Of a stretch of DNA of 64,000 bases, positions 41,391-55,032 are shown piece by piece; the stretch's first letter is position 1, and each line of letters begins with the position of its first letter. The DNA lies in contig CAVZAQ010000002.1 of the NCBI GenBank assembly GCA_963773405.1, forward strand, positions 7,116 through 71,115, read 5' to 3'. Origin of the DNA: an uncultured Chloroflexia bacterium (GTDB taxonomy: Bacteria; Chloroflexota; Limnocylindria; QHBO01). The position numbers were made by a program, and so were the translations under genes. The notes below the pieces were generated by a model. It saw nothing but the letters and a program-made list of their open reading frames with translations. It made no database searches and was not told where the DNA came from.

Positions 41391-41554
41391 GGCGCTGTGC
41401 GTACAATGCCTTGTCCAGTGTTCCGCTCTCTTTGAGCGTGAAGCGCGCGCCCGTAGCTCAGCGGACAGAGCGGATGGCTTCGGACCAAATCGGCTGATGC
41501 GCTGTGGTTCGAGCGTGACCTTCCGAACGAAACGGGTCGAGTTATCCGCTGTGT
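41391..41554 (+). repeat. Repeat unit 1: promoter-like box plus leader, truncated tRNA-Arg(UCG) 5' half (41447-41487) and a divergent tail
   Basis: GGCGCTGTGCGTACAATG...TTTGAGCGTGAAGC then GCGCCCGTAGCTCAGCGGACAGAGCGGATGGCTTCGGACCA, which is 41 nt identical to 46500-46540. Homology to the tRNA stops after GGACCA. The tail ends CGAGTTATCCGCTGTGT. Confidence 0.85.
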
Positions 41555-41616
41555 CGTAGCGCCGATGGGATGCATACCGCCGTGATGTCCAGCACCTGCC
41601 GCTGGCCTGCGACGGC

Positions 41617-42627
41617 CTATGTGCTGCGCCGCCCGCGACGCCGGCTTCGCTTGTAGGCCGTGACATCGCGCTTCGTTGAGTACCAGAGCCCGTCCTGGTG
41701 AGTCGCCCGCAGTCGACCGGCTTGTGCGGCCCTCCGAAGCGCCAGCAGGCTAAGGTCGCGATCCGCGAGCGCCGACAACGGCAGCAGCCGATGTGGGCCT
41801 GCGAGGGCCGGCAAGAGGAAGCGGTCCAGTCCGTCCTTGACCGCTCGCGCAAGAAGTTCAGCGAGAGACCCTGCGTTCCCTGCATCGGCCCGGCGGAGCG
41901 CTGCCAAGTACCGGGGCCGGTCCCGTTTGTAGATGACGGCGGGCGCATATCCTCGCCGGACGAGCAGCAGGTTCAGGGCCAGGCGACCCGCACGGCCGTT
42001 TCCATCACGGAACGGGTGGATCTGCTCGAATCGAGCATGGAGTCCAGCGAGGTGCTCCATGAGGTGCTGCCCGCCGCGCGGCGCCGCATTGGAGTCCCGG
42101 ATCCAGTCGGTGATGAGCGCGGGGACGTCGGTGAACGGGGGAGGCTGCATGCCACTGGGGAACGCGGCGATGTCGTGCAGGCGGAAGGACCCCGGACCTT
42201 CGCCGGGGGCCAGTTGCTCCGGTGGCTGCACCTTCCACACCCCCTCGATCAGGGTCCGGTGGATCTGTCGCAATTCAGTGATCGTGATGTGGTTGCTCGG
42301 CGCCCAGGCCACTGCCTTCGTTGCCTGCTCATACACCCATTCAGCGGCTTCCGCGTACCCTTGGACCTCGAGGTACTGGGCGAGTTCTTCGTTGCCCACG
42401 GCACGTCCCTCATCGAGCAGGAGCCGCACCTGCTTCAGCACCAGCGTGTTTCCCTCGATCGCGGTCGAGTTATGCGCCTCCTCGTACCAGATGCCCTTCC
42501 AGATGTCGCGTGCCTCGAACGGCGCTGGCAGGCCGCCGATACGGCGGAGCTCGTCGATCTCCCGATCGACTGCTTCGAAGATCGCTGTGCGCGTCGGTCG
42601 GCCACGGTGTGGCATTTCGATCGCCAT
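41617..42627 (-). CDS. Fic-domain protein (class II: N-terminal inhibitory motif plus C-terminal winged-helix-like tail)
   Basis: HPFRDGNGRAGRLALNLLLV is a canonical HxFx(D/E)GNGRxxR motif. STAIEGN matches the (S/T)xxxE(G/N) inhibitory motif. The C-terminus is basic, ...YKRSRRRGRRST. Confidence 0.9.
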   Translation of the reverse strand: MAIEMPHRGRPTRTAIFEAVDREIDELRRIGGLPAPFEARDIWKGIWYEEAHNSTAIEGNTLVLKQVRLLLDEGRAVGNEELAQYLEVQGYAEAAEWVYEQATKAVAWAPSNHITITELRQIHRTLIEGVWKVQPPEQLAPGEGPGSFRLHDIAAFPSGMQPPPFTDVPALITDWIRDSNAAPRGGQHLMEHLAGLHARFEQIHPFRDGNGRAGRLALNLLLVRRGYAPAVIYKRDRPRYLAALRRADAGNAGSLAELLARAVKDGLDRFLLPALAGPHRLLPLSALADRDLSLLALRRAAQAGRLRATHQDGLWYSTKRDVTAYKRSRRRGRRST

Positions 42628-42632
42628 TGGAA

Positions 42633-42722
42633 TTCAGTACGCCTAGCGGGAAATATTGGGATCGTACTGAAGTCTAGTACCAGTTCGGTACGAGCGCGTC
42701 AAGAGAAATCGACCGTACCGAA
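42633..42722. promoter_or_regulatory. Two 39-bp dyads, TTC(A/G)GTAC-N23-GTAC(T/C)GAA, immediately upstream of the Fic start
   Basis: TTCAGTAC (42633-42640) pairs with GTACTGAA (42664-42671). TTCGGTAC (42684-42691) pairs with GTACCGAA (42715-42722). The geometry matches that upstream of the paralogue at 46295-46385. Confidence 0.6.
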
Positions 42723-42804
42723 TTCCCCTCGACTGGTCGATTGGCTGGGCAGCGGTCGAGCGTGACATGTCAGCGGAAGGCGTATACCGACAATACCGCT
42801 CGTC

Positions 42805-42969
42805 GAGCGCTGTGCGACAATGCGGCGTCTGGTTTTCCGCTCTGTTTGAGCGTGAAACGCGCGCCCGTAGCTCAGCGGATAGAGCGGATGGCTTCGGACC
42901 AGAAACCCGATTGCGGTGTGCCTCTCCTCGTGGGATGCCGAGCATTTCGGGCCGAGTTATCCGCTGTGT
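42805..42969 (+). repeat. Repeat unit 2: promoter-like box plus leader, truncated tRNA-Arg 5' half (42861-42901, one D-loop substitution) and a conserved ~68-nt tail
   Basis: GAGCGCTGTGCGACAATG...TTTGAGCGTGAAAC, then GCGCCCGTAGCTCAGCGGATAGAGCGGATGGCTTCGGACCA, then GAAACCCGATTGCGGTGTGCCTCTCCTCGTGGGATGCCGAGCATTTCGGGCCGAGTTATCCGCTGTGT. Confidence 0.85.
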
Positions 42970-43016
42970 TTGCCCTCGATCTCACCCCTCCGTCCCCAGG
43001 CAGCCCCAGGGCGGGG

Positions 43017-44114
43017 TCACTGGAGGGAGGAAACGATCTCGCCTGCAGCCGAGGTCTCGAGGAGACGCGAGCCAAGCAGATAGACTCGGGCCCGCCGGTC
43101 TCCAGACCCGATGAGCCAGCCGCCCGCCACGGCACGGGCCAAGTCTCTGGTCGTGCTCTGCGGGCTGCGACCAGTAAGCGCGATGTAGTCCGATGCGCGC
43201 AGGTGGCGATTGACCCAGGCGAACGCCAGGCCATCGATCATCGACGCCGGGAGGGCGCCCTCGGAGATGGCTCGCCGGATGGCGATCATGATTTCGCCGA
43301 GCCCGCGGATCCGCGCTAGGACGAAATCGGCCGAGTTCAGAAGCGAAGTCAGGAAGTACGAGACGAACGGGGTAGCGTCATACCCAGGCTCGTACGAACG
43401 ACCAACTGCCGTGCGAATCGCGGCAAAGTATGCGGTCCGGTCGAGATCCAGCTGGGCATCAAGGGAGACCAAACCGTCGAGGCCAAAGTCATGGCGGATG
43501 AGGATGAACCGCGACACGGCGCGTGCCGTCCGGCCATTGCCGTCGTTGAATGGGTGGATTGCGAGCAGCTCGAGATGGGCGAGAGCCGCCGCCACCAACG
43601 GACCGTGTCGCGTCGGAGCCGATGTCAGCCATTGGGAGTATTCGCGCATCAGAGACGGGACATCCCCCGACGGTGGCGTGCTGAAGATGGTCCGCCCAGC
43701 GTCGTCGATAACGCGGTTTTCGCCACGTCGGTATTCGCCGGGTGTCAGGAGGGGACTCTGACCCCATAGCACGCGCCGATGAATCTCCCGAATGAAGCCT
43801 TCATCGGGTCCAATCGCTGGCTTGGCTGCGAGTTCATCGACGAGGGCAAGGGCCTCCCGGGTCCCGATAACCTCGCGGGCCTCTCGATCGTTCAGCCGGC
43901 GTCGTTCACCGCCGGCGAGCAGAGCTTCAACTTCCACGTCGGAGAGGGTGTTGCCCTCGATTCGCGTCGTTCCGTGGATGGTCCGTACCCAGGCTCGGTT
44001 GCGAAGCCAGCTGGCGTGAGTAGGGTCGATCGGCAGGTTGCGGAACAGCCAGCGGCGCTGATCCAGGTCCTCAAGGATCCGCCTGAGGCCACGTGAACGG
44101 AGCCGATACCGCAT
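43017..44114 (-). CDS. Fic-domain protein, second type (class II motif, long C-terminal winged-helix region)
   Basis: HPFNDGNGRTARAVSRFILI is the Fic motif, and TTRIEGN is the inhibitory motif. The start is placed at the ATG at 44114 (MRYRLRSRGL), 5 nt after GGGAGGAG. ORF 43017..44222 extends 36 codons further upstream. Confidence 0.85.
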   Translation of the reverse strand: MRYRLRSRGLRRILEDLDQRRWLFRNLPIDPTHASWLRNRAWVRTIHGTTRIEGNTLSDVEVEALLAGGERRRLNDREAREVIGTREALALVDELAAKPAIGPDEGFIREIHRRVLWGQSPLLTPGEYRRGENRVIDDAGRTIFSTPPSGDVPSLMREYSQWLTSAPTRHGPLVAAALAHLELLAIHPFNDGNGRTARAVSRFILIRHDFGLDGLVSLDAQLDLDRTAYFAAIRTAVGRSYEPGYDATPFVSYFLTSLLNSADFVLARIRGLGEIMIAIRRAISEGALPASMIDGLAFAWVNRHLRASDYIALTGRSPQSTTRDLARAVAGGWLIGSGDRRARVYLLGSRLLETSAAGEIVSSLQ

Positions 44115-44125
44115 GCGCTCCTCCC

Positions 44126-44147
44126 GGTAATTGCGGATATTATTACC
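44126..44147. promoter_or_regulatory. Dyad GGTAAT-N10-ATTACC upstream of the second Fic gene
   Basis: GGTAATTGCGGATATTATTACC sits in the only AT-rich patch of this cassette. Confidence 0.4.
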
Positions 44148-44208
44148 GCCCACGGTAGTATTCGCAACCTTTACAGCGTTACGTTCAGACGAGACCATCC
44201 CGCTCCTC

Positions 44209-44373
44209 GAGCGCTGTGGCACAATGCGTCGTCTGGTTTTCCGCTCTGTTTGAGCGTGAAACGCGCGCCCGTAGCTCAGCGGACAGAGCGGGTGGCTTCG
44301 GACCAGAAACCCGGCCGCGGTGTGCCCACCCTCCTGCAGCGCCGACCATTTCGCGCCGAGTTATCCGCTGTGT
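44209..44373 (+). repeat. Repeat unit 3: promoter-like box plus leader, truncated tRNA-Arg 5' half (44265-44305, one A-to-G substitution) and a conserved tail variant
   Basis: GAGCGCTGTGGCACAATG..., then GCGCCCGTAGCTCAGCGGACAGAGCGGGTGGCTTCGGACCA, then GAAACCCGGCCGCGGTGTGCCCACCCTCCTGCAGCGCCGACCATTTCGCGCCGAGTTATCCGCTGTGT. Confidence 0.85.
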
Positions 44374-44377
44374 CCCG

Positions 44378-44794
44378 TCAGTCCGGGAGGAGGAGCAGGG
44401 CGTCGACATGGCGCGGTCGGAGGACACCGAAATGGCGATGGTCGAGCGTCGCCAGCTTCGGCTCATTCAGGCGCTCGACGACTGTCAGCACAGCCGCGTC
44501 GACATAGCCAATGTCGGCATCGGCGTACCGGTCGCACAGCTCGGCGATCCGACGATGATCGTCCGCGCTTAGGTTCACGAGCCCGTACGCTCCGCTCTCG
44601 ATGTCCGCGAGCAACGCGACGAGCACGCCTGGGTGAAGGCTGCGATGGATGAGGTAGTCCACTTCGACGAGCACGGGAGCCGGGATCAGGAGCGGCTCCT
44701 CGCTGCTCTCGATCAGGTGCCGACAGCGAGAATGATCGTCATCACTGCGGTCGAGGGAGGCGTACAGGGGACCGGTATCGAGGATCAGCGCCAC
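44378..44794 (-). CDS. vapC: PIN-domain toxin (VapC family)
   Basis: MALILDTGPLYASLDRSD...LLIPAPVLVEVDYL...GYVDAAVLTVVERL...LATLDHRHF shows the PIN acidic residues. There is a 10-nt overlap with the upstream antitoxin gene. Confidence 0.85.
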   Translation of the reverse strand: MALILDTGPLYASLDRSDDDHSRCRHLIESSEEPLLIPAPVLVEVDYLIHRSLHPGVLVALLADIESGAYGLVNLSADDHRRIAELCDRYADADIGYVDAAVLTVVERLNEPKLATLDHRHFGVLRPRHVDALLLLPD

Positions 44795-45009
44795 GTGCGC
44801 GGCTCAGCCAGCTCGTCGGCCGAGCGGCGAGCGATATCGGCCTTCCCCGACGCACCCGAGCCGATGCTGCGCGGACGCGGCCGGGCAGTCGCCAGCTTCT
44901 CGTCGATGGCCTCGCGCACGATGGTGGCCATCGAGACGCCGCGTTCGGCGGCGAGCCGTCTCAGCCTTCCCCGGAGTTCGGGTGGAATGGTAAGGGTGGT
45001 GCGCTCCAT
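44785..45009 (-). CDS. vapB: Ribbon-helix-helix antitoxin (VapB/CopG-like)
   Basis: MERTTLTIPPELRGRLRRLAAERGVSMATIVREAIDEKL matches the RHH pattern. It lies upstream of and overlaps vapC. Confidence 0.8.
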   Translation of the reverse strand: MERTTLTIPPELRGRLRRLAAERGVSMATIVREAIDEKLATARPRPRSIGSGASGKADIARRSADELAEPRTWR

Positions 45010-45032
45010 GGTGCAATGATAGCAGACGATGC

Positions 45033-45049
45033 ATCACCGCACTGGTGAT
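45033..45049. promoter_or_regulatory. Palindrome ATCACC-gcact-GGTGAT upstream of vapB; candidate operator
   Basis: Perfect 6-bp arms, 24 nt upstream of the vapB ATG. Confidence 0.45.
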
Positions 45050-45071
45050 CTGGCAGACCATATCGCGGTGC

Positions 45072-45236
45072 GAGCGCTGTGCAACAATGCCTCGTCTGGT
45101 TTTCCGCTCGGTTTGAGCGTGAAACGCGCGCCCGTAGCTCAGCGGACAGAGCGGATGGCTTCGGACCAGAAACCCGATTGCGGTGTGCCTCTCCTCGTGG
45201 GACGCGGAGCATTTCGGGCCGAGTTATCCGCTGTGT
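45072..45236 (+). repeat. Repeat unit 4: promoter-like box plus leader, truncated tRNA-Arg 5' half (45128-45168, identical to the intact gene) and a conserved tail
   Basis: GAGCGCTGTGCAACAATG..., then the 41-nt 5' half, then GAAACCCGATTGCGGTGTGCCTCTCCTCGTGGGACGCGGAGCATTTCGGGCCGAGTTATCCGCTGTGT. This tail is nearly identical to that of unit 2. Confidence 0.85.
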
Positions 45237-45280
45237 CTGCCACCTGTAGGAGCCTCCCGCGCGCGGGCCCGCCAAGCGCT

Positions 45281-46291
45281 CTAGATGGCGCGCCGGCCGC
45301 GACGGCGGCTTCGCCGGTAGGCGAGGACATCGCGCTTCGTCGAGTACCAGCGACCGTTCTGGTGAGTCGCGCGGAGTCGGCCCGACTGCGCGGCTCTGCG
45401 CAGGGCCAGCGGGCTGAGGTCCCGCTCAGCCAGGGCTGACAACGGCAGCAGCCGATGCGGGCCGGCGAGGGCCGGCAACAGGAAGCGGTCCAGCCCGTCC
45501 TTGACTGCGCGCGCCACGAGCTCCGCGAGGGACCCGCTGTTACCGCGATCGGCCCGGCGGAGTGCGGCCAGGTACTTCGCGCGGTCCCGCTTGTAGATCA
45601 GGGCGGGCGCGTAGCCTCGCCGCACGAGGAGCAGGTTGAGGGCGAGGCGACCTGCACGCCCATTCCCATCGCGGAACGGATGGATCTGCTCGAAGCGAGC
45701 ATGGAGCGTAGCCAGGTGCTCCATGAGGTGCTGTCCGCTGCGGGGTGCCGCATTCGCGTCCCGGATCCAGTCGCTCATGAGCGCGTGGACGTCGGTGAAT
45801 GGTGGTGGCTTCATCCCGCCGGCAAAGGCGCCGATGTCGTGCAGGCGGAATGACCCTGGCCCTTCCCCGGCGATGAGCTGTTCAGGAGGCTTCACTTTCC
45901 ATACCGCCTCGACCAGGGTTCGGTGGATCTGTCGCAGCTCGGTCAGCGTGATGTGGTCGCTGGGTACCCAGGCCACCGCCTTAGTTGCCTGCTCGTATAC
46001 CCATTCAGCGGCTTCTGCATAGCCTTGGACCTCGAGATACTGCGCGAGCTCTTCATCCCCGACTGCACGTCCTTCTTCGAGCAAGACCCGGACTTGTTTG
46101 AGCAGCAGGGTGTTGCCCTCGATCGCGGTAGAGTTGTGCGCCTCCTCGTACCAGATGCCCGTCCAGATATCGCGTGCCTCAAACGGTGCGGGCAGCCCGC
46201 CGATGCGGCGCATCTCCTCGATCTCGCGATCGACGGCGTCGAAGATGGCGGTGCGCGAGGGGCGGCCGCGCTGCGGCATCTCAATCGGCAC
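45281..46291 (-). CDS. Fic-domain protein, close paralogue of 41617..42627
   Basis: It is colinear with the first Fic and most positions are identical by eye (HPFRDGNGRAGRLALNLLLV, STAIEGN, tail YRRSRRRGRRAI). The start is placed at the GTG at 46291 (VPIEMPQRGRP), by analogy with MAIEMPHRGRP and because the dyads begin 4 nt upstream. Confidence 0.85.
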   Translation of the reverse strand: MPIEMPQRGRPSRTAIFDAVDREIEEMRRIGGLPAPFEARDIWTGIWYEEAHNSTAIEGNTLLLKQVRVLLEEGRAVGDEELAQYLEVQGYAEAAEWVYEQATKAVAWVPSDHITLTELRQIHRTLVEAVWKVKPPEQLIAGEGPGSFRLHDIGAFAGGMKPPPFTDVHALMSDWIRDANAAPRSGQHLMEHLATLHARFEQIHPFRDGNGRAGRLALNLLLVRRGYAPALIYKRDRAKYLAALRRADRGNSGSLAELVARAVKDGLDRFLLPALAGPHRLLPLSALAERDLSPLALRRAAQSGRLRATHQNGRWYSTKRDVLAYRRSRRRGRRAI

Positions 46292-46294
46292 GAG

Positions 46295-46385
46295 TTCGGT
46301 ACATACCTCGCCGGATAATTGGACCGTACCGAATTCTAGCACGTGCTTCGGTACGATGACCTCACAAGAAACCCACCGTACCGAA
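46295..46385. promoter_or_regulatory. Two 39-bp dyads, TTCGGTAC-N23-GTACCGAA, upstream of the Fic paralogue
   Basis: 46295-46302 pairs with 46326-46333, and 46347-46354 pairs with 46378-46385. Confidence 0.6.
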
Positions 46386-46443
46386 TTCCTTCCCGCTGGC
46401 CGAACTGTGAGCTAGATCTGACCCCCAGACCATCCCGCTGTCC

Positions 46444-46499
46444 GAGCGCTGTGGCAGAATGGCTCGGCTGGTCTTCCGCTCGCTTTGAGCGTGAAGCGC
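46444..46499 (+). promoter_or_regulatory. Promoter-like box and leader of the intact tRNA-Arg gene (fifth copy of the repeat)
   Basis: GAGCGCTGTGGCAGAATGGCTCGGCTGGTCTTCCGCTCGCTTTGAGCGTGAAGC is colinear with the four upstream units. The (T/C/G/A)A(C/G)AAT hexamer is a plausible -10 element. Confidence 0.5.
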
Positions 46500-46575
46500 G
46501 CGCCCGTAGCTCAGCGGACAGAGCGGATGGCTTCGGACCATCAGGTCGCGGGTTCGATTCCTGCCGGGCGCGCCA
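46500..46575 (+). tRNA. tRNA-Arg, anticodon UCG, with encoded CCA
   Basis: Manual cloverleaf: acceptor stem GCGCCCG/CGGGCGC, D arm GCTC-AGCGGACA-GAGC, and anticodon arm GATGG-CTTCGGA-CCATC (TCG at 46533-46535). Variable loop AGGTC, T arm GCGGG-TTCGATT-CCTGC, discriminator G, then CCA. Confidence 0.9.
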
Positions 46576-48019
46576 AGAACATAACTTCGGGAAGAGCCAA
46601 CGCCAGTCCGTGGCGGTAAGCCTCGGGCGTGAGCTCGACCTCTCGGACGCCGTCGACGTCAACGACGACCCGGGCGTAGACCGCGCGCAGGAGCCTTGAG
46701 CGAGCCTCCTCGCCGGCGAGGCGCCAGGCGGAACGGAGGTCGCGCAGGGCAGCCACGGCCGAGTCGGGGTCGATTGCCGGGCGAGAGTGGCGTGCTTCCG
46801 AGAGCGCGTCGAGCTCGGCGCTGATGCGTCGATGTTCGGCCAGATAGGCCTCCGTGGTTAGTTGCCGGCGGGCATGTCGGTGGGCGCGCTCCCGGAGTTC
46901 ATGCTCGAGCTGGCGACGGCGGATGGCGGTGCTGGGAACGGGCGCCGCCTCGAGGTTGGCCAGCGCCCGAACGCGAGCCAGGGTCGCGCGGTCGAGCCGC
47001 AGGCCCGTGAGCTGCGCGACCAGCGGGGTCTCGTAGCGCTCGGCGCGGCGGCTCGCTGCCGACCACGCAGGGCACGGCCGGATGTGACGGATCCGGCGGT
47101 AGACGTAACCCTTGGGGGTGGCGATGTCGCAGCGCAGTCGAGCGCCACACGCGGCGCAGAAGGCGCGGCCGGAGAGCGGGTGGATCCGCCCGGAGCGTGG
47201 ACCGCCGCCGCGCGACCTCACACCCCGGACCTCGGCCACCTGCGCCCACAGCTCGTCAGAGACGGGCGGATGCGACCGCCACGGCGCGGGTGCGCGCTGC
47301 TCGTGCCGTGAGCGCCGGTGGCGCACCGCCCAGCCGTTGTACAGGGGGTTGCGCAGGATGGCGCGGATCGCGTCGGCGCGCATGCCGGTCTCGGCCTCAA
47401 GGGCAGTTAGGCTCCAGTCTCCGGTGGCATAGAGCTCGAAAAGCGCAACCGCTCGTGGCATGCTCCCTGGGTCGATCACCAGCCGTGCATCCGGGGCAGG
47501 CGTGCGGCGGAAGCCGAGCCCGGGCGACCCACCCTGATCGCCGAGCCGGAACTTGGCGGCGTAGCCCTCGGCGATGCGCCGCGCTAGGCGTCGGCTGTAG
47601 GCCTCGGCCTCGACCGCCTCGCGGGCCCAGCGCTCCCAATGATCCTCGTCGGAACTGAGCAGTTCCTCGTCGCAGAAGAGGAGAGCGGCGCCGGCGGCGT
47701 GCAGATCGTCCCGGACGTTGACCGCCGTCTTCAGATTGCGCGCGAAGCGGCTGACGTAACCGACCAGCAGGACGTCATATCCCTCGCCGGCGGTGGCCAG
47801 CATCTCCGCGAACGCGGCGGTGTTCGCCACGGTGCGACCCGAGTGGGCGACCTCCCAAGCCAGTCCCGTGTCCACCAAGCCCCAGCGTTCCAGGGCACGG
47901 TCCTGCTGGGCTCGTTGGGCGGCCGGTCCATAGCGGTCGGCCTGGCCGTGCGTGCTCTCGCGTATCCAGCGCGCGGCACGTAGACCATGGAGTTCGTCGA
48001 GCGATCCCGGGAGGTTCAT
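46541..48019 (-). CDS. Large serine recombinase (resolvase domain, recombinase domain, zinc ribbon, coiled coil)
   Basis: RAARWIRESTHGQ (catalytic Ser), VLLVGYVSRFARN, NPLYNGW, CAACGARLRC. The ATG is at 48019, after GAGGAAGGG. The last 11 codons (ARPAGIEPAT*) are encoded antisense to the tRNA 3' half. The stop codon is at 46541-46543. Confidence 0.85.
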   Translation of the reverse strand: MNLPGSLDELHGLRAARWIRESTHGQADRYGPAAQRAQQDRALERWGLVDTGLAWEVAHSGRTVANTAAFAEMLATAGEGYDVLLVGYVSRFARNLKTAVNVRDDLHAAGAALLFCDEELLSSDEDHWERWAREAVEAEAYSRRLARRIAEGYAAKFRLGDQGGSPGLGFRRTPAPDARLVIDPGSMPRAVALFELYATGDWSLTALEAETGMRADAIRAILRNPLYNGWAVRHRRSRHEQRAPAPWRSHPPVSDELWAQVAEVRGVRSRGGGPRSGRIHPLSGRAFCAACGARLRCDIATPKGYVYRRIRHIRPCPAWSAASRRAERYETPLVAQLTGLRLDRATLARVRALANLEAAPVPSTAIRRRQLEHELRERAHRHARRQLTTEAYLAEHRRISAELDALSEARHSRPAIDPDSAVAALRDLRSAWRLAGEEARSRLLRAVYARVVVDVDGVREVELTPEAYRHGLALALPEVMFLARPAGIEPAT

Positions 48020-48382
48020 GTCTGGCCCTTCCTCACCGCCCTCAGCGTACCGCGCCGGCAACGCGCCTCGTGTTCTCTCCGCGTTACGTCAACGCCAAGC
48101 TCCAGGAGGGCGCGGCAGAGTCGACAGCCACAGATCCGAATTGCAACAGGGCCCGCTGTCCTAGCCGCTGCCCGGCCGACGACGACGCCGCCATTCGACG
48201 GCGGCAACCGCACCAGGGCGTGATGCAGCGCACGCGGCGAGCGCGTCGCCGGAGCAGCGCGGCGCGGTCGTACGCGAGGGTGCGTCCGCTTCAGCCGCCG
48301 AGCCGGACTGCCCCGAGGCATGCTGCACCGATGTGCTTCACGGGGACCACACTCGTCAAGGCTGCACCGGCGGCGAGCGGCT

Positions 48383-49522
48383 TCACGGTGACTGCATCTC
48401 CAGGTACCGCCGGAACAGTGGGTCCGCCACTTCGTAGCGGCCGCGGCGACCGTTCGCCAGTCGACGGATGTGCCCAGCGGCGGCCAGCCTTCGGAGCGCT
48501 TGGCGTGTGGCGGGCGGAGCAACACCGGCTCGGCGAGCGAGCCCCTCGACGTCACGGGATCGCAGCGGCTCGTTGCCGTCGGCGAGGAGGCGGACTACGG
48601 CCTGCTCCGACGGAGCCATGGCGTTCCATCGGCCGACGAAGATCTCCTGGCTGACGGTCGCGAAGGCGCGTTCGAACCCTATCCCATACTCGGCCTCGCC
48701 GACATGGCCGTCCACGGCAGCATCGAAGGCGTGATAGGCCAGCTTCTGGAGGTAGTACGGGCGGCCGGCCGATGCCCGCGCCATGTCAGCCAGTACCTTT
48801 GGTTCGAACGTGACGCCGGTCCCTTGGAGGGGTATCGCGATAGCACGTTCCGTGTCGTGCTCGTCGAGCGGGCCAAGGGTCAGGGGCTCGTAGTAACGGA
48901 TGAGGGACTCATGCGCCGAACCGACGCCCGCGAACAGGGACGGCGTGGCGGCGACGACGAGTGCGATCGGCAGGTCGTTGGCGTAGAGCTCCAGGCAGAT
49001 GGCCCGGAGTCGCAGTAGCACATCCCTCCCGCCCGCCAGTAGGTCAATGTCGTCAACGAGGATGGACGCTAGGGCGTTGCGGTCGTGCTGGCGTTTGGCC
49101 AAGCGCTCGATGGCGGCTCGGAGGACTTGCGGGGCCGGTTCGCCGAAGGACTGGCGCACTTTCGCGGTTGCGAGGCCCAGACTGACTCCGACCTCCACGT
49201 CTCGGGTTTGGTCCGCTCCCGCAGTCGGATCAGCCTCGATGGCTAGGCGCAGTCCGTCCAGGAAGTCGCCGACCGGCTGCGGGTAGGCGAGCGTTAGCAC
49301 AACGGCATCGCCGAGGTCCCGCAGGAGCCGGCGCCAGTGCATGAGCAGTGTCGTCTTGCCGATCGCCCATTCGCCGAGCAGCGCGGTGTGGTGCGGATGG
49401 CCCTCGCGTGTCCGCGCGATCCGCGCCATCGCGATCTCCGTCTCTCGCTCTCGACCGGCGAGGAGCGGCGGGAAGATGCCGCTGCCGGGCCGGAACGGAT
49501 TCTCAGGCTGAATTTGTGACAA
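48383..49522 (-). CDS. P-loop ATPase (Arch_ATPase/ORC-like) with a C-terminal winged helix
   Basis: NPFRPGSGIFPPLLAGRERE, Walker A GEWAIGKTTL, Walker B SILVDDID, and C-terminal ...RQALRRLAAAGHIRRL. The start is probably the TTG at 49522, 9 nt after AGGAG; the ORF track opens at the TTG at 49531. The first codons lie in a TGTGACAAC x2 direct repeat. Confidence 0.7.
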   Translation of the reverse strand: MSQIQPENPFRPGSGIFPPLLAGRERETEIAMARIARTREGHPHHTALLGEWAIGKTTLLMHWRRLLRDLGDAVVLTLAYPQPVGDFLDGLRLAIEADPTAGADQTRDVEVGVSLGLATAKVRQSFGEPAPQVLRAAIERLAKRQHDRNALASILVDDIDLLAGGRDVLLRLRAICLELYANDLPIALVVAATPSLFAGVGSAHESLIRYYEPLTLGPLDEHDTERAIAIPLQGTGVTFEPKVLADMARASAGRPYYLQKLAYHAFDAAVDGHVGEAEYGIGFERAFATVSQEIFVGRWNAMAPSEQAVVRLLADGNEPLRSRDVEGLARRAGVAPPATRQALRRLAAAGHIRRLANGRRGRYEVADPLFRRYLEMQSP

Positions 49523-49619
49523 CTGTGACAACTCCTGTCACGAACGACTCTGGTTGGATGGGCCGGGGAGCGCCGTGGGCGCCTCCCCGGCCCGATTCAT
49601 CACCTCATCGGTAACCGCC

Positions 49620-50318
49620 CTACGCCGCCGGTCTGCCCTGCCGCAGCCACGAGCGCGAGCGCATCGCGTTGGCGACCACGTCGAGGTAGACCTCGGAGTA
49701 GGACACGCTGCCGCGCTCGAGCACCGCCCAGGCGCAGTTGAGCATCGCGCTGGCGACCATCAGGTTGGTGACCACCAGCTGCGGTCGCTCCTCGGCCTGT
49801 CGCTCGCAGCCGTTGCGGGCCGCGAACTCGGACTCGCTCGCCCGGCCGATCTCCGCGTGGATCTCGGCCAGGCTGCCGTCGAGGGACGCACCGCCCCGGC
49901 GGCGGACGAGCTGGACGTTGCCGTCCGTCTCGTCGTTGCCGCCGGAGATCAGGGTCACCTCGTCGAGGGTGGCCAGGTGCCGATCGACCACGAAGCGGGT
50001 CCAGTGGTTGTCGACCGCCAGCAGGACCAGGTCGCCGGAGCGGATGACCGCCCCGACGTTCTCGTCCGTCAGGTAGTCGGCCACCGCCTGGACCGTCAGC
50101 CCTCCGCGGTACGCCTCGGCCAAGGCCTCGGCCTTGTTCGAGCCGATGGCGGACTCGGGGAAGAGCTGCCGCGTCCGGTTGCCGGGCTCGTAGGCGTCGC
50201 CGTCGACGAGCACCAGCACCGGTCGCGGTTCGGGTTTGGCGGCCAGGTAGCGGACCAGGCTGGGCACCAGCTGTGAGCCGATGCCGCCCAGCCCCACGAG
50301 GACGATGCGGTCAAGCAT
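49620..50318 (-). CDS. ThiF/E1-like adenylyltransferase, short (232 aa), PRTRC-ThiF-like
   Basis: IVLVGLGGIGSQL is the Rossmann GxGGxG motif, followed by VLVDGDAYEPGNRTRQLF. The ATG follows GAAGGGAGGAAC and overlaps the upstream stop. Confidence 0.8.
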   Translation of the reverse strand: MLDRIVLVGLGGIGSQLVPSLVRYLAAKPEPRPVLVLVDGDAYEPGNRTRQLFPESAIGSNKAEALAEAYRGGLTVQAVADYLTDENVGAVIRSGDLVLLAVDNHWTRFVVDRHLATLDEVTLISGGNDETDGNVQLVRRRGGASLDGSLAEIHAEIGRASESEFAARNGCERQAEERPQLVVTNLMVASAMLNCAWAVLERGSVSYSEVYLDVVANAMRSRSWLRQGRPAA

Positions 50319-51157
50319 CGCTGGTTCCTCCCTTCGTGGCTGATGTCGCGATCGGCGTCAGCTGGTAGACCAGGCTCTCGCCCAGCTCGCTGGCCAGCTC
50401 GGTCGCCTCGGTGAGGAGGCGGTCGAGCGTCGTTCGGTCGCGCCAGGTCCAGCTCGGGATCGTCCAGCTGGACGATCCATTCGGTCTTGGCGCTCCCGTT
50501 CGACCTGCCCTTCTTCTTCGGTGGCGCGGTCGCCAGCGGCTTCACCCGCTCCAGCCAGTCGGCCGGAGGGTCGGAGAAGCGCCGCGGCCGCTCGAAGGCG
50601 AGCGACGTCCGGCAGCCGAAGCGCCGGCCGTCGACCACGATCGACGCCGAGTAGCTGACCCGCCGTTGGTCGACGTCGCCGACCACGACGTGGATGCCGT
50701 CGAAGTCGGCCTCGTCGGCCTCATCGGTCAGGCTGGCCCCGGCGCTCAGCGCGCCGTGGCTGTGGATCGAGCCGACCAGGCGTGCCGTCGAGGGCACGTC
50801 GGCGGGCGCGAGCCGATGCTTGACCGATGCGACCCCGGCGCGCTGCTCGGGGACGATGAGGCCAAAGGCTTCGCCGTCCCAGGTGAACAGCGCCAGGGCC
50901 TCGGTCTTCCTCGCGCGCCAGATGGCGCGGAAGAAGCCGACCGCCTGACCCATCAGCGCGGCGGGCACCTTGGGTAGCGCGTACTCGAGGTACTCGCGCG
51001 CCGGGGGCAGGTGGGCCACGGTCTCGACCTGCACCTGCGATAGCCCCAGGAGGCTGCGCTTGCGCAGGTAGAGCCCGTCGCGGGCCACCAGGAAGGCGGG
51101 GAGGGCGAGCTCCCCGGCGGCCGACTCGTCGACCGCCACGATCGGGAACAGGCTCAT
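50311..51157 (-). pseudogene. JAB/MPN (JAMM) metalloprotease with one apparent frameshift near 50440
   Basis: RKTEALALF...GSIHSHGALSAGASLTDEADE is the complete E...HxHx7Sx2D motif. After ...LDDPELDL the coherent reading (RDRTTLDRLLTEATELASELGESLVYQLTPIATSATKGGTSDA*) is in the next frame and ends at 50311. Confidence 0.75.
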
Positions 51158-51429
51158 CGCCCCGCCTCCTCGCCGCCGGAGCGTTCCGGCAGCCAGTACA
51201 CGATCCGCTCGAGGTGAGCGAACTTGTGACTGGCGGCCAGTCGCTCGTCGCGGAGGGGGAAGCCTCCGTCGCGCAGCAGCTTGGCGGCGACGGCGAAGGC
51301 CGCCGACGCCAGCTCGCCGGGAAGCGAGCCGTCGGTGGCGTACACCGCGCGCCGCGGCGTCAGCAGGCTCGAGGCCCGCGTCAGCTCGACGTGCGGCAGA
51401 CGCCCCACCGTCTCAAGCAGCCGCCGCAT
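51154..51429 (-). CDS. Small conserved-looking protein of the Ubl operon (hypothetical, 91 aa)
   Basis: The ATG is 8 nt after AAGGAGG. There is an ATGA overlap with the JAB gene. No motif was recognised. Confidence 0.55.
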   Translation of the reverse strand: MRRLLETVGRLPHVELTRASSLLTPRRAVYATDGSLPGELASAAFAVAAKLLRDGGFPLRDERLAASHKFAHLERIVYWLPERSGGEEAGR

Positions 51430-52192
51430 CGGCGCCACCTCCTTGCGGAGCTGGCGCCTGGTCCGGCGCCGGTGTCTCCACCGTCGCCTGCGGCTGTCCG
51501 CTGCGCGGCGCGCCCGGCAGGTCCTCGGGACTCATGCCGGCCGCCGCGGCCACCACCTGGCGCAGGCTGCGCCAGTAGCGGTCGTATTGGGCCGACAGCC
51601 CCGCCAGCGGGTCACGCCGTGAACGAGACGCCCAGGCCCTGAACCCTCCGGAGAACGGCAGCGGATGGCGCCGGATGTCGGCGTTGAAGCGGCTGCTCCA
51701 GAAGGCACCGATCAGCCCCTCGATGCGCTCGACCAGGCTGTCACCGCCCACGTGCACCGTGCCGAGACAGACGATCCCGTCGTCGGAGGTGTTGGGCAGG
51801 CAGCTGTGCTCGAGCGCGTCGTCGAGGCTGGCCAGCGGGCTGGTGCGGAAGAAGTTCGACAGGCCCTCGACGCGGCCCGCCTGAACCGAGACCACGAACA
51901 CCACGTACGGCAGCGAGACCCGGTGGCTGACCGGCTCGGAGCCATAGCGGTTGGATGCGTGGTACTCGACCTGGCGGCGCATCGGGAGCTGTTCGATGAC
52001 GAACACCTCCCGCCCCTCGGGAGAGCGAACCCAGAAGCGGCAGCCGGCGGGCAGGATTCCCGTGCACGCCGACCGCTGCTCGGCCAGCCGGTTCAGCAGG
52101 TCGTCGAGCGCGACTTCGCGCTCGGTCACCTCGCTCACCAGCGTGGCCAGGTCGCCCTCGATGCGCAGGTACTTGCGCGAATGCATGGACAT
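51413..52192 (-). CDS. E2/UBC-like protein (PRTRC protein B-like)
   Basis: CLPNTSDDGIVCLG resembles the E2 HPN...G.(I/V)CL active-site signature, with the Cys about 10 residues after PN. The ATG follows GAGAGGAG. The tail is Pro/Ala-rich. Confidence 0.55.
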   Translation of the reverse strand: MSMHSRKYLRIEGDLATLVSEVTEREVALDDLLNRLAEQRSACTGILPAGCRFWVRSPEGREVFVIEQLPMRRQVEYHASNRYGSEPVSHRVSLPYVVFVVSVQAGRVEGLSNFFRTSPLASLDDALEHSCLPNTSDDGIVCLGTVHVGGDSLVERIEGLIGAFWSSRFNADIRRHPLPFSGGFRAWASRSRRDPLAGLSAQYDRYWRSLRQVVAAAAGMSPEDLPGAPRSGQPQATVETPAPDQAPAPQGGGADAAAA

Positions 52193-52282
52193 CGCGAGCT
52201 CCTCTCTTCGAGAACCGATGGCGGCCGTCGGCGCACCCGTCGGGTGTACCCCCGGCCGCCGTCGGCTCTGCCGTCGGTGTCG

Positions 52283-52525
52283 TCAGGCCGCGAGGCCCTT
52301 GACGCCGGCCGGCTTGAGGAACTCGATCTCGTCACCGGGACGCACGATGTGGTCGTCGGCCACGACCTGGCCGTTGACCCGCACCGTCGTCTCGCGCGGC
52401 AGGTTGAGCACCTGCTCGAGCATCTTCCAGATGCCGCGGATGCTCTTGCCGCCGAGGTCGAGGCCCAGCTCGTTGACGCCGTACACGACCTTGACGGCCG
52501 TGTCCGTGTCCTCGTAGGTCTGCAC
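52283..52525 (-). CDS. Ubiquitin-like beta-grasp protein (ThiS/MoaD/PRTRC protein C-like, 80 aa)
   Basis: The GTG at 52525 lies 7 nt after AAGGAG. The sequence is VQTYEDTDTAVKVVYGVNELGLDLGGKSIRGIWKMLEQVLNLPRETTVRVNGQVVADDHIVRPGDEIEFLKPAGVKGLAA. Its size, the VNG...V...GDEIEF pattern and its position ahead of E2/JAB/E1 fit a Ubl. The C-terminus is KG-LAA rather than a free GG. Confidence 0.6.
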   Translation of the reverse strand: MQTYEDTDTAVKVVYGVNELGLDLGGKSIRGIWKMLEQVLNLPRETTVRVNGQVVADDHIVRPGDEIEFLKPAGVKGLAA

Positions 52526-52980
52526 GATGGATCTCCTTGTGCTTTGCGAGAGTCGCGAACACGAAAAAGGACCGGGCAGCATCCACGAGGTGCGTTCGCC
52601 GACCACCTCGTTCGCCGATACCGCACGCGGCGGCCGAATCCCGGTCCGGTGAGCGCTCGAAGACGAACGATCACCGGCGGGCGCTCGCCGCCGGTGTCGA
52701 CCGATAGTGGTGAGGCAACCCTCCTTTCTGCGGCGCGGAGTCGTCCGCCACCGACATCGGAGTGAGGCCCGACCCTCGCCGGTCGCACCTGCGGAGGTGC
52801 ACCTGGAGCCGAGATGCGGCCCGACGCGCCCGCTCCTGCGTTGAGAGCGAGCCGCGACCGAGCCGATCCGAGCATCCGAGGAGCGTTCCTCACAGATGAC
52901 CGATCAGCTGGCCGGGCCCACTCCGGGTGGGGGCGGAAGCGCCGTGCTGCTGCATGCGGTTCGCGCGGGTTGAGGTGCGC
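52526..52980 (-). promoter_or_regulatory. Leader copy R1: ~455-nt candidate structured 5' leader RNA upstream of the Ubl gene, ending in a terminator-like helix plus U-tract
   Basis: It fills the whole HTH-Ubl intergenic region and is colinear with 53424-53880. Indels between the two copies break every reading frame. Conserved hairpins include GCGGA-N4-TCCGC, CGAGGTG-N-CACCTCG and CCGC-N5-GCGG. A GGACCGGG...CCCGGTCC helix is followed by TTTTTC (plus-strand 52564-52647). Confidence 0.5.
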
Positions 52981-53004
52981 GACCCGGGCGACGAGCGCGA
53001 GCGG

Positions 53005-53346
53005 TTAGCGAAGGCCGAGAAGGCGGTCGATGTCGGCCGCTTCGAGCTCTTCGTCGAGCTCACGCAGGTCGCGCCGGATCGCGGCCGCGAGCTCCAATGC
53101 CTGGCGTCGCAGCCGCCAGAGCTGCTCCCGATTGCAGCGGAGCCGCTCGTTGGGCTCCGGCGTGCCGAGGTACTCCCCGACCGCGGGGAGGCGTGTCCGG
53201 ATCTGACTGATCCGGGCGGCGCTGACGCCGAGGCGTCCAGCGATCTGACGATTGCTGTAGCCGGCATCGAGCAGCTCGGCGACCGTGCGCGCCTGGTCGA
53301 TGAAGCGCGGGCTGAGCGGCAGGCCGCGACCGTTGTGCGCGGTCAT
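53005..53346 (-). CDS. Small HTH DNA-binding protein (sigma-r4/Hin-like HTH plus coiled coil)
   Basis: MTAHNGRGLPLSPRFIDQARTVAELLDAGYSNRQIAGRLGVSAARISQIRTRL, then a charged helical tail. The long upstream extension in ORF 53005..54372 is leader copy R2, not coding sequence. Confidence 0.65.
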   Translation of the reverse strand: MTAHNGRGLPLSPRFIDQARTVAELLDAGYSNRQIAGRLGVSAARISQIRTRLPAVGEYLGTPEPNERLRCNREQLWRLRRQALELAAAIRRDLRELDEELEAADIDRLLGLR

Positions 53347-53423
53347 GGCCGTACCGCCCGAGGCTCGCGCCCCACCGTCGGCAGTGGAGGTCGACGGCGT
53401 CGAACTCCCTCGTGACGGTGCAC

Positions 53424-53880
53424 GCTCGATCTCCTTGTGCTGGCGAGGTGTCGCGAACACGAGAAAAGGACCGGGTGAGCGCCACGAGGTGCGTTCGCGT
53501 AGGTACCACCTCGTTTCGCGGATGCCGCACGTTGCGGCCGAGTCCCGGTCCGATGAGCGCTCGAATGAGAACGACCACCGGCGGGCGCTCGCCGCCGGCG
53601 CAGACCGTTGGCGGGGAGGCATCCCTCCTTTCTCGACGCGGAGACTTCCGCCACCGAGGTCGAAGCGAGGCCTGCCGCCGCCGGTCGCACCTGCGATGAA
53701 GCACCTGATGTCCGAGATCAGCCCGACGCCCCCGCCCTCATTCGAAGAGCGAGCCGCGACCGAGCCGATGCGGACATCGAAAGGAGCTGTCCTCGCCGAT
53801 GGACCGATCGAGCGGCCTGGCCCGTCCCGAGTCGGGGCGAACGCGCCGTGAAGCTGCAGGCGGATCGCGCGAATCGAGGT
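53424..53880 (-). promoter_or_regulatory. Leader copy R2: second copy of the ~455-nt candidate leader RNA, upstream of the HTH gene
   Basis: It has the same block order as R1 and ends ...CCCGGTCCTTTTCTCGTGTTCGCGAC...AGCACAAGGAGATCGAGCGTG. One stem shows G-C and A-U pairs in R1 replaced by G-U pairs in R2 (CCGGTGA/TCACCGG against CCGGTGG/TCATCGG). Confidence 0.5.
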
Positions 53881-54230
53881 CTGAAAAGCGCGAATGGCAG
53901 CGTGTATGCGGTTGGTAAGGTGCGCTGTCGCCGTTGGAGCGCTGTTGGCTCCGGCGCCGCCACTGGTTGGATCGCGACCCGATGAGGGTCGTGGGAGTCC
54001 ATGGCGGGGGACTCCGCCAGGCCTCGATGTGAGGCGATGGCGGCGGCCGGTCGTCTGAAAGGTCCACAACCGGGACGGCGCGGCCGCCGACTCATACGCT
54101 AGTCCGGCGCGGGACAGAAAGCAATAGAAAGTGTGTACATTTCGGTGTACGTTCGAGCACAAAGGAGCTTGGGAGGTGTCGTCAAGGCACTGAGGGGGAA
54201 CCCGACGCGCCGGTTGACCAGCGGTGGCAG

Positions 54231-54250
54231 AATAGAACGCCCGTTCTATT
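54231..54250. promoter_or_regulatory. Perfect palindrome AATAGAAC-gccc-GTTCTATT
   Basis: 8-bp arms, 11 nt upstream of the small plus-strand ORF. It sits in the divergent control region, next to the only AT-rich patch of the element (54115-54160). Confidence 0.45.
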
Positions 54251-54261
54251 GAGGTTCGCCG

Positions 54262-54432
54262 ATGAACGCGATGCGCTGCTGGTACCGAGGCTGCCTGGAG
54301 CAAGGTGATCCGCGCCCGTTGTTCGCGCAGGCTCATGGCTTGCCGGCTGCCATTCGACTCTGCGACCGCCACATGGCCGAGCTGGCACGAGACCGTGACC
54401 CGGCTTGGGCGATCGAGCGACCACGGATGTGA
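54262..54432 (+). CDS. Small Cys/His-containing protein (56 aa, hypothetical); the only plus-strand gene in the element
   Basis: MNAMRCWYRGCLEQGDPRPLFAQAHGLPAAIRLCDRHMAELARDRDPAWAIERPRM. GAGG lies 7 nt upstream. It is below the 60-aa cutoff of the ORF track. The CxxxC...CxxH pattern could bind zinc. Confidence 0.4.
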   Translation: MNAMRCWYRGCLEQGDPRPLFAQAHGLPAAIRLCDRHMAELARDRDPAWAIERPRM

Positions 54433-54435
54433 TGA

Positions 54436-55032
54436 CTACTCGCGGGGTGTCTTACCCTCAGCCTCTGAGGGTTCCTCGCTTGGCCCGTCGTGAGGATCGA
54501 GCCATTCGGCACCGGCGTCGCGTCGGCCGGCGCGAATATCCGCCGCGAACGATCGCAATCGTTCGACGTGGCTTTCCCTGAGCCCCGACCGGGGGTAGAC
54601 ATCCACCAGCAAGGTTGGGATGCCCAGCTCGGTACGTCGCCAGTGCGACCAATACCGCGCGTCCGACGAGAGATCGTCGTCGATCCAGGCTGCAGGACGG
54701 TCGCGGACGAAGGCGATGACGTCCGGCAGCTTGAGCGTGTAGCCCTCGAACGTCGGGTCGGGCGGCGTGAACGTGATGAACGGCAACTCCGGCAACCCGA
54801 TCAGCGGACCGATGAGGAGGTTTGCATCGGCCTCCCAGGTGGTGGCCCACACCAGCTCGAACTCCTTGCCGAGCTCTCGCAGCCACTCGCCATGCGTCGG
54901 CGAGAGCAGCACCCGCATCCCCGCGAGACGGTGCTCGTCGAATCCGTCTGGCACCGAGTCCGCCGTGAACGGGTTCAGCACACCGTCGATATCGACCAGC
55001 AGGAGCGGCTTCTGCGCCGCCGCCTGGGTCAT
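54436..55032 (-). CDS. HAD-superfamily hydrolase
   Basis: LLLVDIDGVLNPF is the DxDG(V/T) motif I, followed by ...WATTWE...AAWIDDD. Confidence 0.7.
   Translation of the reverse strand: MTQAAAQKPLLLVDIDGVLNPFTADSVPDGFDEHRLAGMRVLLSPTHGEWLRELGKEFELVWATTWEADANLLIGPLIGLPELPFITFTPPDPTFEGYTLKLPDVIAFVRDRPAAWIDDDLSSDARYWSHWRRTELGIPTLLVDVYPRSGLRESHVERLRSFAADIRAGRRDAGAEWLDPHDGPSEEPSEAEGKTPRE

Follow-up and report, generated by a model that had tools for sequence, protein, structure and literature searches.

Analysis of a 64,000-nucleotide (nt) stretch of DNA from an uncultured Chloroflexia bacterium (contig CAVZAQ010000002.1; hereafter the window) revealed a new, previously undescribed family of large structured RNA leaders, the full element measuring ~600 nt. 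The window holds two copies on the minus strand, which also carries all the genes around them (Table 1). Copy A precedes the first gene of an operon for a ubiquitin-like protein (Ubl), and copy B precedes a short upstream open reading frame (uORF) and a helix-turn-helix (HTH) gene. Judged from sequence comparison, the operon is a distant PRTRC-like Ubl module (Ubl-E2-JAB-E1) on an integrative conjugative element of Limnocylindria-type Chloroflexota. Cis-acting control of the expression of this operon is the role we favor for the leader, with about even confidence; we infer this function, the level of control and the trigger from the features described below.

Aligned with MAFFT (52480-53010(-) against 53380-53920(-), ~530 columns), the copies were collinear and 82-86% identical (mean column identity 86%), with eight small, frame-breaking indels of 1, 4 or 7 nt, and the pair was recovered independently by a repeat finder (D5, D12). 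Both results confirm the collinearity of 52526-52980 and 53424-53880 reported in a preliminary description of the window. The conserved element reaches ~135 nt beyond the limit given there for copy B, to ~54015, adding three hairpins (U1-U3) and a universal 5′ motif. The U1-U3 region is absent from copy A, which is therefore a 5′-truncated copy beginning at the HTH stop codon. The predicted folds had z scores of -4.68 (copy A) and -5.07 (copy B) with respect to dinucleotide shuffles, 0/100 of which were equally stable. Both copies terminate in AGCACAAGGAGAUC-N4-GUG, and a closing helix GGACCGGG...CCCGGUCC precedes UUUUUC or UUUUCUC in each. The ribosome binding site (RBS) and GUG context described earlier is thus shared by both copies, but the GUG of copy B is not the HTH start, as had been supposed; it opens the uORF. 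The possibility of an assembly duplication, named in the preliminary description as a result that would overturn it, was excluded, since five other loci (L010, L059, L069, L071 and L073) carry two copies with an HTH gene between them.

The wider family was assembled from 144 related loci, gathered through the E2-like protein and then searched with a leader profile (nhmmer); the loci with enough upstream sequence provided 66 non-redundant Chloroflexota upstream regions, and in all of them the leader was directly upstream of the Ubl gene. The relatives of the E2-like protein came from soil metagenomes and from Chloroflexota metagenome-assembled genomes, most of which bore the label Limnocylindria or Chloroflexia. 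The upstream regions were distributed in three clades: that of the window (leaders 77-90% identical), a larger one, and a more distant third. Between clades the E2 proteins were merely 55-60% identical (~60% for the larger clade with respect to the window). The sole match to Rfam 15 at the gathering threshold in the whole window was a tRNA-Arg, and a search of 52200-54200 at E values up to 10 returned three chance-level matches only (17-19 bits), in line with the preliminary description, which matched the region to no known RNA family. Neither blastn of the leader against 72,556 plasmid records and 50,697 phages nor an exact-pattern scan of IMG/VR viral contigs gave a match. Two loci were unusual: L063 (3233-3680) has a complete leader and operon on a contig binned as Acidimicrobiia (Actinomycetota), either a cross-phylum transfer or a binning error, and on the short metagenome contig L139 (161-495) the leader is opposite in strand to a truncated Ubl gene and the E2 gene, either an inversion or an assembly chimera.

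The leader is non-coding, as indicated by the spacing of its conserved anchors, which varies among relatives by non-multiples of 3, and by the lack of any conserved frame or stop. The open reading frame (ORF) starting at an internal AUG had the same conserved nucleotides in all three frames across relatives and stopped after 6 to >70 codons, and was rejected as a coding sequence. These observations support the earlier argument that frame-breaking indels make protein coding unlikely. A degenerate or unrecognised coding sequence on either strand might be suspected because in L007 and L009 gene callers annotated an opposite-strand ORF of 215 amino acids (aa), and because an open frame in copy B extends into the HTH gene; yet chance long ORFs are expected at 70% G+C, and with conserved nucleotides shifting frame and stops falling anywhere in different relatives, this explanation is unlikely to the point of being barely tenable.

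The element was modelled domain by domain with covariance models (CMs), because whole-element RNAalifold on MAFFT alignments produced inconsistent long-range pairs and, at 70% G+C, an unbiased search for covariation between all pairs of columns was swamped by noise; an automatic maximum-expected-accuracy structure of the mid-region gave implausible pairs and was replaced by hand-defined helices. The 3′ domain is a three-way junction, formed by the closing helix and hairpins 4a and 4b, with a pseudoknot between the loop of 4b and a strand beyond the closing helix. In a CM alignment of 61 distinct sequences, junction and pseudoknot were 90.4% paired, against 83.9% in shuffles (0/500) and 35-43% in slid controls, and 14 pairs had changed on both sides. 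In the clade of the window the pseudoknot (CGCGAAC with GUUCGCG) was 100% paired in 21 copies, while the other clades pair GUGCCGCG with CGCGGCAC, ACGCCGC with GCGGCGU, or AGCCGC with GCGGCU, so that the junction hairpins and pseudoknot keep the same architecture with wholly different sequences. The word GCGAAC occurs twice in each window copy, once within the 4b loop and once immediately 5′ of hairpin 4b (52594-52600 and 52610-52616; 53493-53499 and ~53514-53521); the GUUCGCG tail thus has two possible partners in this clade, and no such duplicate was seen in the larger clade.

For the mid-domain, which comprises Pa3, Pb, Pc and a small hairpin, a model built on the larger clade found the window copies at 44.7 and 44.0 bits (E ~3e-6), together with all other copies in the window's clade. 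Over 69 sequences, both window copies included, the mid-domain was 90.6% paired with respect to 83.4% in shuffles (0/500), with 11 double-change pairs; the inner pairs of Pc were exchanged as AU/GC, UA/AU/UG/CG and CG/UA/AU. A conserved fold backed by covariation, as expected of a riboswitch, was therefore found in both the mid-domain and the pseudoknotted junction. The stems named in the preliminary description could all be located by coordinates in both copies, and covariation in relatives supports them in addition to the pseudoknot. The mid-domain model (R2) also gave weak matches (26-29 bits, E 0.003-0.015) inside the E2-like gene of the window's clade (L012 4051-4149, and the same position in L002, L011, L013, L136, L071 and L072), which are probably chance matches in GC-rich coding DNA, repeated through homology.

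Toward the 5′ end, hairpins U1-U3 contributed 17 double-change pairs in total. Between them and H1 lies the universal motif, with the consensus GGCGACAG..CACCUU..CAACC..CGCUGCC, which may be a promoter or operator, or else a single-stranded RNA segment. A long irregular hairpin was the minimum free energy (MFE) fold in every sequence tested. Swapping its arms between relatives cost 1 to 16 kcal/mol of stability, a loss that rose with divergence. In the plain MAFFT alignment pairing over its 76 pairs reached 77.8% (slid controls, 37-48%), and covariation was modest but significant. Local alternatives such as the GAGGA-loop-CUCC hairpin, which may instead be side branches, compete with the long hairpin, so that the fine structure given here is tentative.

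The folded molecule is the mRNA-sense strand, as judged from an excess of G.U over A.C cells (414:180, or 2.3:1, in the long hairpin; 178:24, or 7.4:1, in the 3′ domain) and from the greater stability of the long hairpin on the sense than on the antisense strand (mean 13 kcal/mol, 58/65 sequences, Wilcoxon p = 4e-10). Folding on the transcribed minus strand, as first described, was thus borne out, and the strand-specific G.U pairing disfavors the DNA site of the oriT or iteron type that had been offered as the alternative. It likewise argues against a duplicated regulatory region of double-stranded DNA, in which the HTH or winged-HTH proteins would bind a promoter, operators and inverted repeats and the stems would be by-products of palindromic binding sites. 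Such proteins are encoded alongside, and the universal unpaired motif and the palindrome CCGGCGCCGG could be protein-binding DNA; nevertheless, G.U and A.C mismatches should be equally frequent in palindromes, compensatory changes keep the pairing despite complete sequence turnover between clades, and a pseudoknot is meaningless in duplex DNA. We consider this explanation unlikely, with a very small probability.

Only a little more probable, and still unlikely, is a single-stranded DNA (ssDNA) element of the conjugative element, namely a single-strand origin or initiation site (sso/ssi) at which the complementary strand would be made, or a Frpo-type ssDNA promoter that would fire in the recipient from the transferred strand. 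Frpo/ssi elements are ~300-nt hairpin-forming non-coding repeats before successive genes of plasmid leading regions, and a Frpo promoter requires both -35/-10 hexamers and a fold of the template strand (PMC11541004). The leader resembles them in that a long, strand-specifically folding hairpin is repeated before consecutive genes of a conjugative element, here an integrative one with Replic_Relax, VirB4-like and DUF87 genes. It differs in folding on the coding (sense) strand, which argues against a Frpo-type promoter, in having a pseudoknotted junction, and in lacking sequence similarity in the plasmid and phage collections searched; moreover, a promoter scan of 52200-54500 found 0 promoter-like sites and no -35/-10 hexamers. 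The fixed juxtaposition to RBS and start codon and the co-duplication with them are unexpected of an sso, the leader also occurs where no relaxase gene is nearby, and it is present in RNA assemblies. Origins of the ssoA type have conserved RSB and CS-6 (TAGCGT) motifs and convert ssDNA in one orientation; the 5′ motif of the leader reads TAGCGC, in one sub-clade only.

Regarding transcription, contigs from 8 soil and rhizosphere metatranscriptomes matched an L004-type relative at 88-99% identity and tiled L004 5095-5996, running unbroken from the leader into the Ubl gene (start 5647), with nothing at 4900-5095. Related contigs crossed the leader-Ubl and leader-HTH junctions of window-like variants, and contig X57 covered the universal 5′ motif. 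RNA runs matching the window provided short related contigs only, mostly on the Ubl gene, and no run contained the window itself. The region had been described as transcribed, and these contigs agree with that description, within the limits of strandless data that may contain DNA.

A further conserved feature is an internal Shine-Dalgarno (SD)-like motif, present in 66/66 sequences as AAAGGAGG (window's and third clades) or GGAGGUGAU (larger clade); an AUG, replaced by UUG in copy A, always comes 1-2 nt after it. It is exposed, has maximal complementarity to the 16S rRNA 3′ end and lies ~190 nt upstream of the true start codon, and its GGAGG core is extended in different directions by different clades. 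On the strength of this sequence pattern, what seems to be under selection is 30S binding, for example by a docking site or a decoy, and not a peptide. The CACCUU of the universal 5′ motif is similar to the anti-SD sequence of 16S rRNA and is able to pair with GAGGUG or AAGG of the internal SD-like motif (53620-53633); in several relatives the MFE fold has a CACCUU helix enclosing the entire 5′ half, and both strands of this helix are invariant within clades.

In the reading that we favor, the leader would form the 5′ untranslated region of the minus-strand Ubl transcript. It folds, in order, into U1-U3, H1, H2, the long hairpin (~170 nt), Pa3, the exposed SD-like sequence and AUG, Pb, Pc and the three-way junction, whose second hairpin loop pairs as a pseudoknot with a stretch 10-25 nt upstream of the true RBS. 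The leader would act in cis as a portable cassette for any gene placed after its RBS and start codon. Control would probably be exerted after the initiation of transcription, whether by way of ribosome access, of 30S subunits docking at the SD-like site or of RNA stability, and its probable trigger would be a bound factor. The cassette and the first ~20 Ubl codons would have been duplicated upon insertion of the HTH gene, in the window and the five relatives, with the HTH gene read through a translationally coupled uORF, so that regulator and Ubl operon would share control.

The double-copy loci agree with this arrangement. The preliminary description placed the leader before both the HTH gene and the Ubl operon, which holds, the HTH gene being reached via the uORF. 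In the window the HTH gene is not in frame with the GUG of copy B; the uORF, a remnant of the 5′ end of the Ubl gene, ends in a UGA that overlaps the HTH AUG (AUGA, 53343-53346); AAGGAGA-N-GUG on the HTH side and the (A/G)UGA overlap are kept in four loci (window, L059, L071 and L073). The uORF of the latter three has 27 codons and reads VQ(T/P)(Y/N)ED..., a remnant of the Ubl N-terminus, and in L010 the Ubl remnant is fused in frame to the HTH gene; homologous HTH genes occur in the other double-copy loci. Co-duplication of the cassette with its RBS and start codon is what would be expected if the leader controls its own start, with the regulator wired in by translational coupling.

Several observations weigh against cis-regulation by a switching leader. 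The 3′ helices of the window's clade, although 97-100% paired and arranged like the junction that covaries in the larger clade, are invariant, with no covariation within the clade, so that covariation there stems from the sister clades; the larger-clade (group-B) model R1 did not detect the window 3′ domain significantly (13-18 bits), and homology of that domain is based on collinearity, shared architecture and the significant mid-domain match. No terminator was found by a consensus scan of the leader, and enforcing junction and pseudoknot caused no consistent change in SD/AUG accessibility (0.39, against 0.33 when free; p = 0.16); given both results, the mechanism is one that we infer. The Logan metatranscriptome contigs carry no strand information and may contain DNA, and are supporting rather than decisive. 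Finally, ~600 nt far exceeds any riboswitch known to us, leaving room for a non-regulatory RNA function. The terminator-like end of the preliminary description was therefore not upheld: the U-tract after the closing helix is limited to the window's clade, where it often reads UUCUU (CCGCC or similar in the larger clade), and the bases just after the helix are the 3′ strand of the conserved pseudoknot. An attenuator of the intrinsic-terminator type was rejected, as no conserved U-tract directly follows a GC-rich stem. What stands of the riboswitch or attenuator first proposed is a structured, covarying and transcribed leader; the terminator does not.

Riboswitch-type and protein-binding mRNA leaders have junction-plus-pseudoknot folds abutting the RBS. 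The present leader is like them a sense-strand 5′ leader of one operon type, with covarying helices and a junction and pseudoknot near the SD, but is 4-6 times larger than known aptamers and has no Rfam match, and no conserved terminator or clear SD-sequestering alternative was found in it. In hok/sok-type plasmid mRNAs, which are highly folded, long-range pairing hides the SD; the likeness lies in a mobile-element mRNA of several hundred nt with an SD-like element and possible 5′-end pairing (CACCUU with GAGGUG), whereas here no conserved small toxic ORF follows the internal SD-AUG and no antisense RNA gene is evident. OLE, GOLLD, ROOL, HEARO and raiA are large ornate bacterial non-coding RNAs (ncRNAs), all Rfam families. 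With these the leader shares a length of several hundred nt, many covarying helices, occurrence mostly in uncultured bacteria, frequent association with mobile elements and a function not obvious from context, yet it matches none of them in sequence or structure and is always joined to and co-duplicated with the operon RBS, which points to cis action.

Size and helix count beyond any known cis-regulator also underlie the main rival of cis-regulation, a stable functional ncRNA that may be released by processing of the 5′ end of the operon transcript and would partner the Ubl, E1, E2 and JAB proteins or the AAA_16-winged-HTH protein as scaffold, guide, cofactor or target. The strict linkage to one operon type across clades and the lack of an evident expression-platform switch would fit such an RNA, as would a contig depth of 13.5-27.6 in the leader with respect to 4.1 on the Ubl coding sequence in run X61, depth being a poor measure of abundance. 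Nevertheless, constant abutment and co-duplication with RBS and start, together with the coupling to the HTH gene, form a cis pattern, and the transcript contigs extend into coding sequence. We regard a stable RNA of this kind as possible but distinctly less probable than cis-regulation. A more specific version, in which the ~600-nt RNA is a working partner of the Ubl machinery (scaffold, specificity factor or even substrate) or a 30S-docking RNA acting through its perfect match to the 16S rRNA 3′ end, is somewhat more speculative; if it is true, large functional RNAs of a new class would take part in ubiquitin-like conjugation in prokaryotes.

The long hairpin could also be taken as an element of RNA processing, stability or insulation, in which its ~70 bp would serve as an RNase III-type site dividing the Ubl operon from upstream conjugation transcripts and governing mRNA half-life, much as intercistronic hairpins in phage T7 early RNA serve as RNase III-type sites. 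The long near-continuous duplex is found in every sequence; in L001, L002 and the window the leader separates the conjugation genes from the Ubl operon, and copy A of the window is intercistronic. Because this role leaves the conserved and covarying pseudoknotted junction, SD-like motif and U1-U3 unexplained, and L003 and L004 have no co-oriented conjugation genes before the leader, it is doubtful as an account of the element.

Large, elaborately folded bacterial RNAs are rare and, to our knowledge, each so far has opened new biology. The present family has >60 distinct representatives, clear covariation that includes a pseudoknot, and an unusual full-strength internal SD-like sequence, and it is tied to a poorly understood PRTRC-like Ubl operon on conjugative elements of abundant uncultured soil Chloroflexota. 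It offers a concrete way to approach how such Ubl systems are turned on; its alignment is ready for an Rfam family, and the cassette copied to capture a regulator gene is a natural experiment.

Table 1. Features of the leader copies and the adjacent operon in the window (positions of single features are given in the second column; bp, base pairs).
Feature	Copy A or single position	Copy B	Strand	Remarks
Leader copy A	52526-52990		(-)	~465 nt, 5′-truncated, HTH stop codon to Ubl start; MAFFT, profile and CM matches
Leader copy B		53424-54015	(-)	~590 nt, full-length, upstream of uORF and HTH gene; nhmmer and CM matches
U1 hairpin, GGAGUCC-loop-GGACUCC		53994-54015	(-)	Copy B only; 94.4% of cells paired (55 sequences); 5/7 pairs change both sides
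U2 hairpin, CGACCC-UCAU-CGGGUCG		53975-53991	(-)	Copy B only; 88.5% paired; 5/7 pairs change both sides
U3 hairpin, outer GCCG/CGGC, inner GGAGC/GCUCC		53930-53955	(-)	Copy B only; inner helix 91.5% paired, 4/5 pairs covarying; outer helix 84% paired
Universal 5′ motif, GGCGACAG..CACCUUACCAACCGCAUACACGCUGCC		53896-53932	(-)	Near-invariant in all clades; degenerate in copy A
H1 hairpin, UCGCGC-loop-GCGCGA	52961-52982	53865-53893	(-)	In all sequences; UCGCAC/GUGCGA in L090; just 76% paired in MAFFT alignment
Long irregular hairpin	52764-52919	53667-53823	(-)	~160-190 nt, ~70 bp; copy A by folding
Pa3 hairpin, GGCGGA-loop-UCCGCC stem (GGCGGA-AGUC-UCCGC)	52735-52749	53638-53652	(-)	99.7% paired (69 sequences); 4/6 pairs change both sides
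Internal SD-like motif	52716-52729, AGAAAGGAGGGUUG	53620-53633, AGAAAGGAGGGAUG	(-)	
Pb hairpin, CCGGCGG-loop-CCGCCGG	52672-52696	53576-53600	(-)	99% paired, nearly invariant
Pc variable hairpin, CCGGUGA/UCACCGG vs CCGGUGG/UCAUCGG	52646-52677	53550-53581	(-)	In both copies; inner 4 bp 97.4% paired
Three-way junction	52569-52647	53468-53551	(-)	Closing helix GGACCGGG/CCCGGUCC, hairpins 4a and 4b
Hairpin 4a, GCCGC-loop-GCGG	52620-52635	53524-53539	(-)	In both copies
Hairpin 4b, CGAGGUG-loop-CACCUCG	52586-52610	53485-53513	(-)	In both copies
Pseudoknot 5′ strand, loop of 4b	52594-52600, GGCGAAC	53493-53499, CGCGAAC	(-)	
Pseudoknot 3′ strand, GUUCGCG	52554-52560	53452-53458	(-)	After closing helix and U-rich stretch
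uORF with its RBS	53343-53436		(-)	AAGGAGA 53430-53436, GUG 53421-53423; 26 codons; ends in AUGA overlap with HTH start
HTH gene	53005-53346		(-)	113 aa, HTH_23 (Pfam); inserted between leader copies
Ubl RBS and start	52532-52538, AAGGAGA; 52523-52525, GUG		(-)	
ThiS-like Ubl gene	52283-52525		(-)	First of operon; Pfam ThiS, 4e-6
Prok-E2_D/PRTRC_B-like gene	51413-52192		(-)	Pfam and NCBIfam
94-aa ORF			(-)	Between E2-like and JAB-like genes
JAB/PRTRC_A-like gene	50096-51157		(-)	Pfam and NCBIfam
ThiF E1 gene	49620-50318		(-)	Pfam and NCBIfam
AAA_16 and winged-HTH gene	48383-49531		(-)	Pfam

After the Ubl gene the operon continues through 48383-52192(-), and relatives keep the same gene order. 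The E2-like, JAB-like and ThiF proteins match PRTRC_B, PRTRC_A and PRTRC_ThiF of the PRTRC systems of proteobacterial plasmids and integrative conjugative elements, and the carrier is likewise conjugative. However, the NCBIfam scores (PRTRC_A 34, PRTRC_B 23 and PRTRC_ThiF 48 bits) fall far under the curated cut-offs (102, 131 and 145 bits, respectively), no ParB gene was seen among the window genes, and the host belongs to the Chloroflexota; low scores and lack of ParB make the operon a distant relative of PRTRC rather than a member. A literature search of titles and abstracts found nothing tying an RNA leader to PRTRC. The JAB-like ORF, which has 270-280 aa in relatives, has 353 aa in the window and shares 222 nt with the E1 gene; its extra tail is of low complexity, and the expected stop near 50318 seems to have been lost through mutation, frameshift or sequence error.

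Upstream of the leader are Replic_Relax and DUF87/VirB4-type conjugation genes. The region 54100-54436, between copy B and a HAD_SAK_2 gene, is AT-richer, with inverted repeats GTGTACA..GGTGTAC and AGAATAGAAC-GCCC-GTTCTATT and a plus-strand ORF of 56 aa with a Cys/His pattern (54262-54432), and may comprise a divergent promoter/operator region and the true start of the leader transcript. At the far end, beyond the AAA_16 and winged-HTH gene, a large recombinase gene adjoins the tRNA-Arg; this ORF of 506 aa (46541-48061) ends the element, gave a weak XisF-recombinase match only, and overlaps the tRNA 3′ end. In L001, L002 and L004 tyrosine integrases (Phage_integrase) occupy its place, so that the integration module appears to have been swapped. 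Farther on, 41403-46613 contains five direct repeats of ~104-186 nt spaced 0.86-1.4 kb apart, the last overlapping the tRNA-Arg (46500-46575) and one earlier repeat giving a weak tRNA match (44265-44319, 21 bits). Integrase-sized minus-strand ORFs lie between the repeats (41617-42627, 43017-44222 and 45281-46342), two of them sharing a 300-nt, 80% identical end, and the array looks like tandem integration remnants at a tRNA-Arg hotspot.

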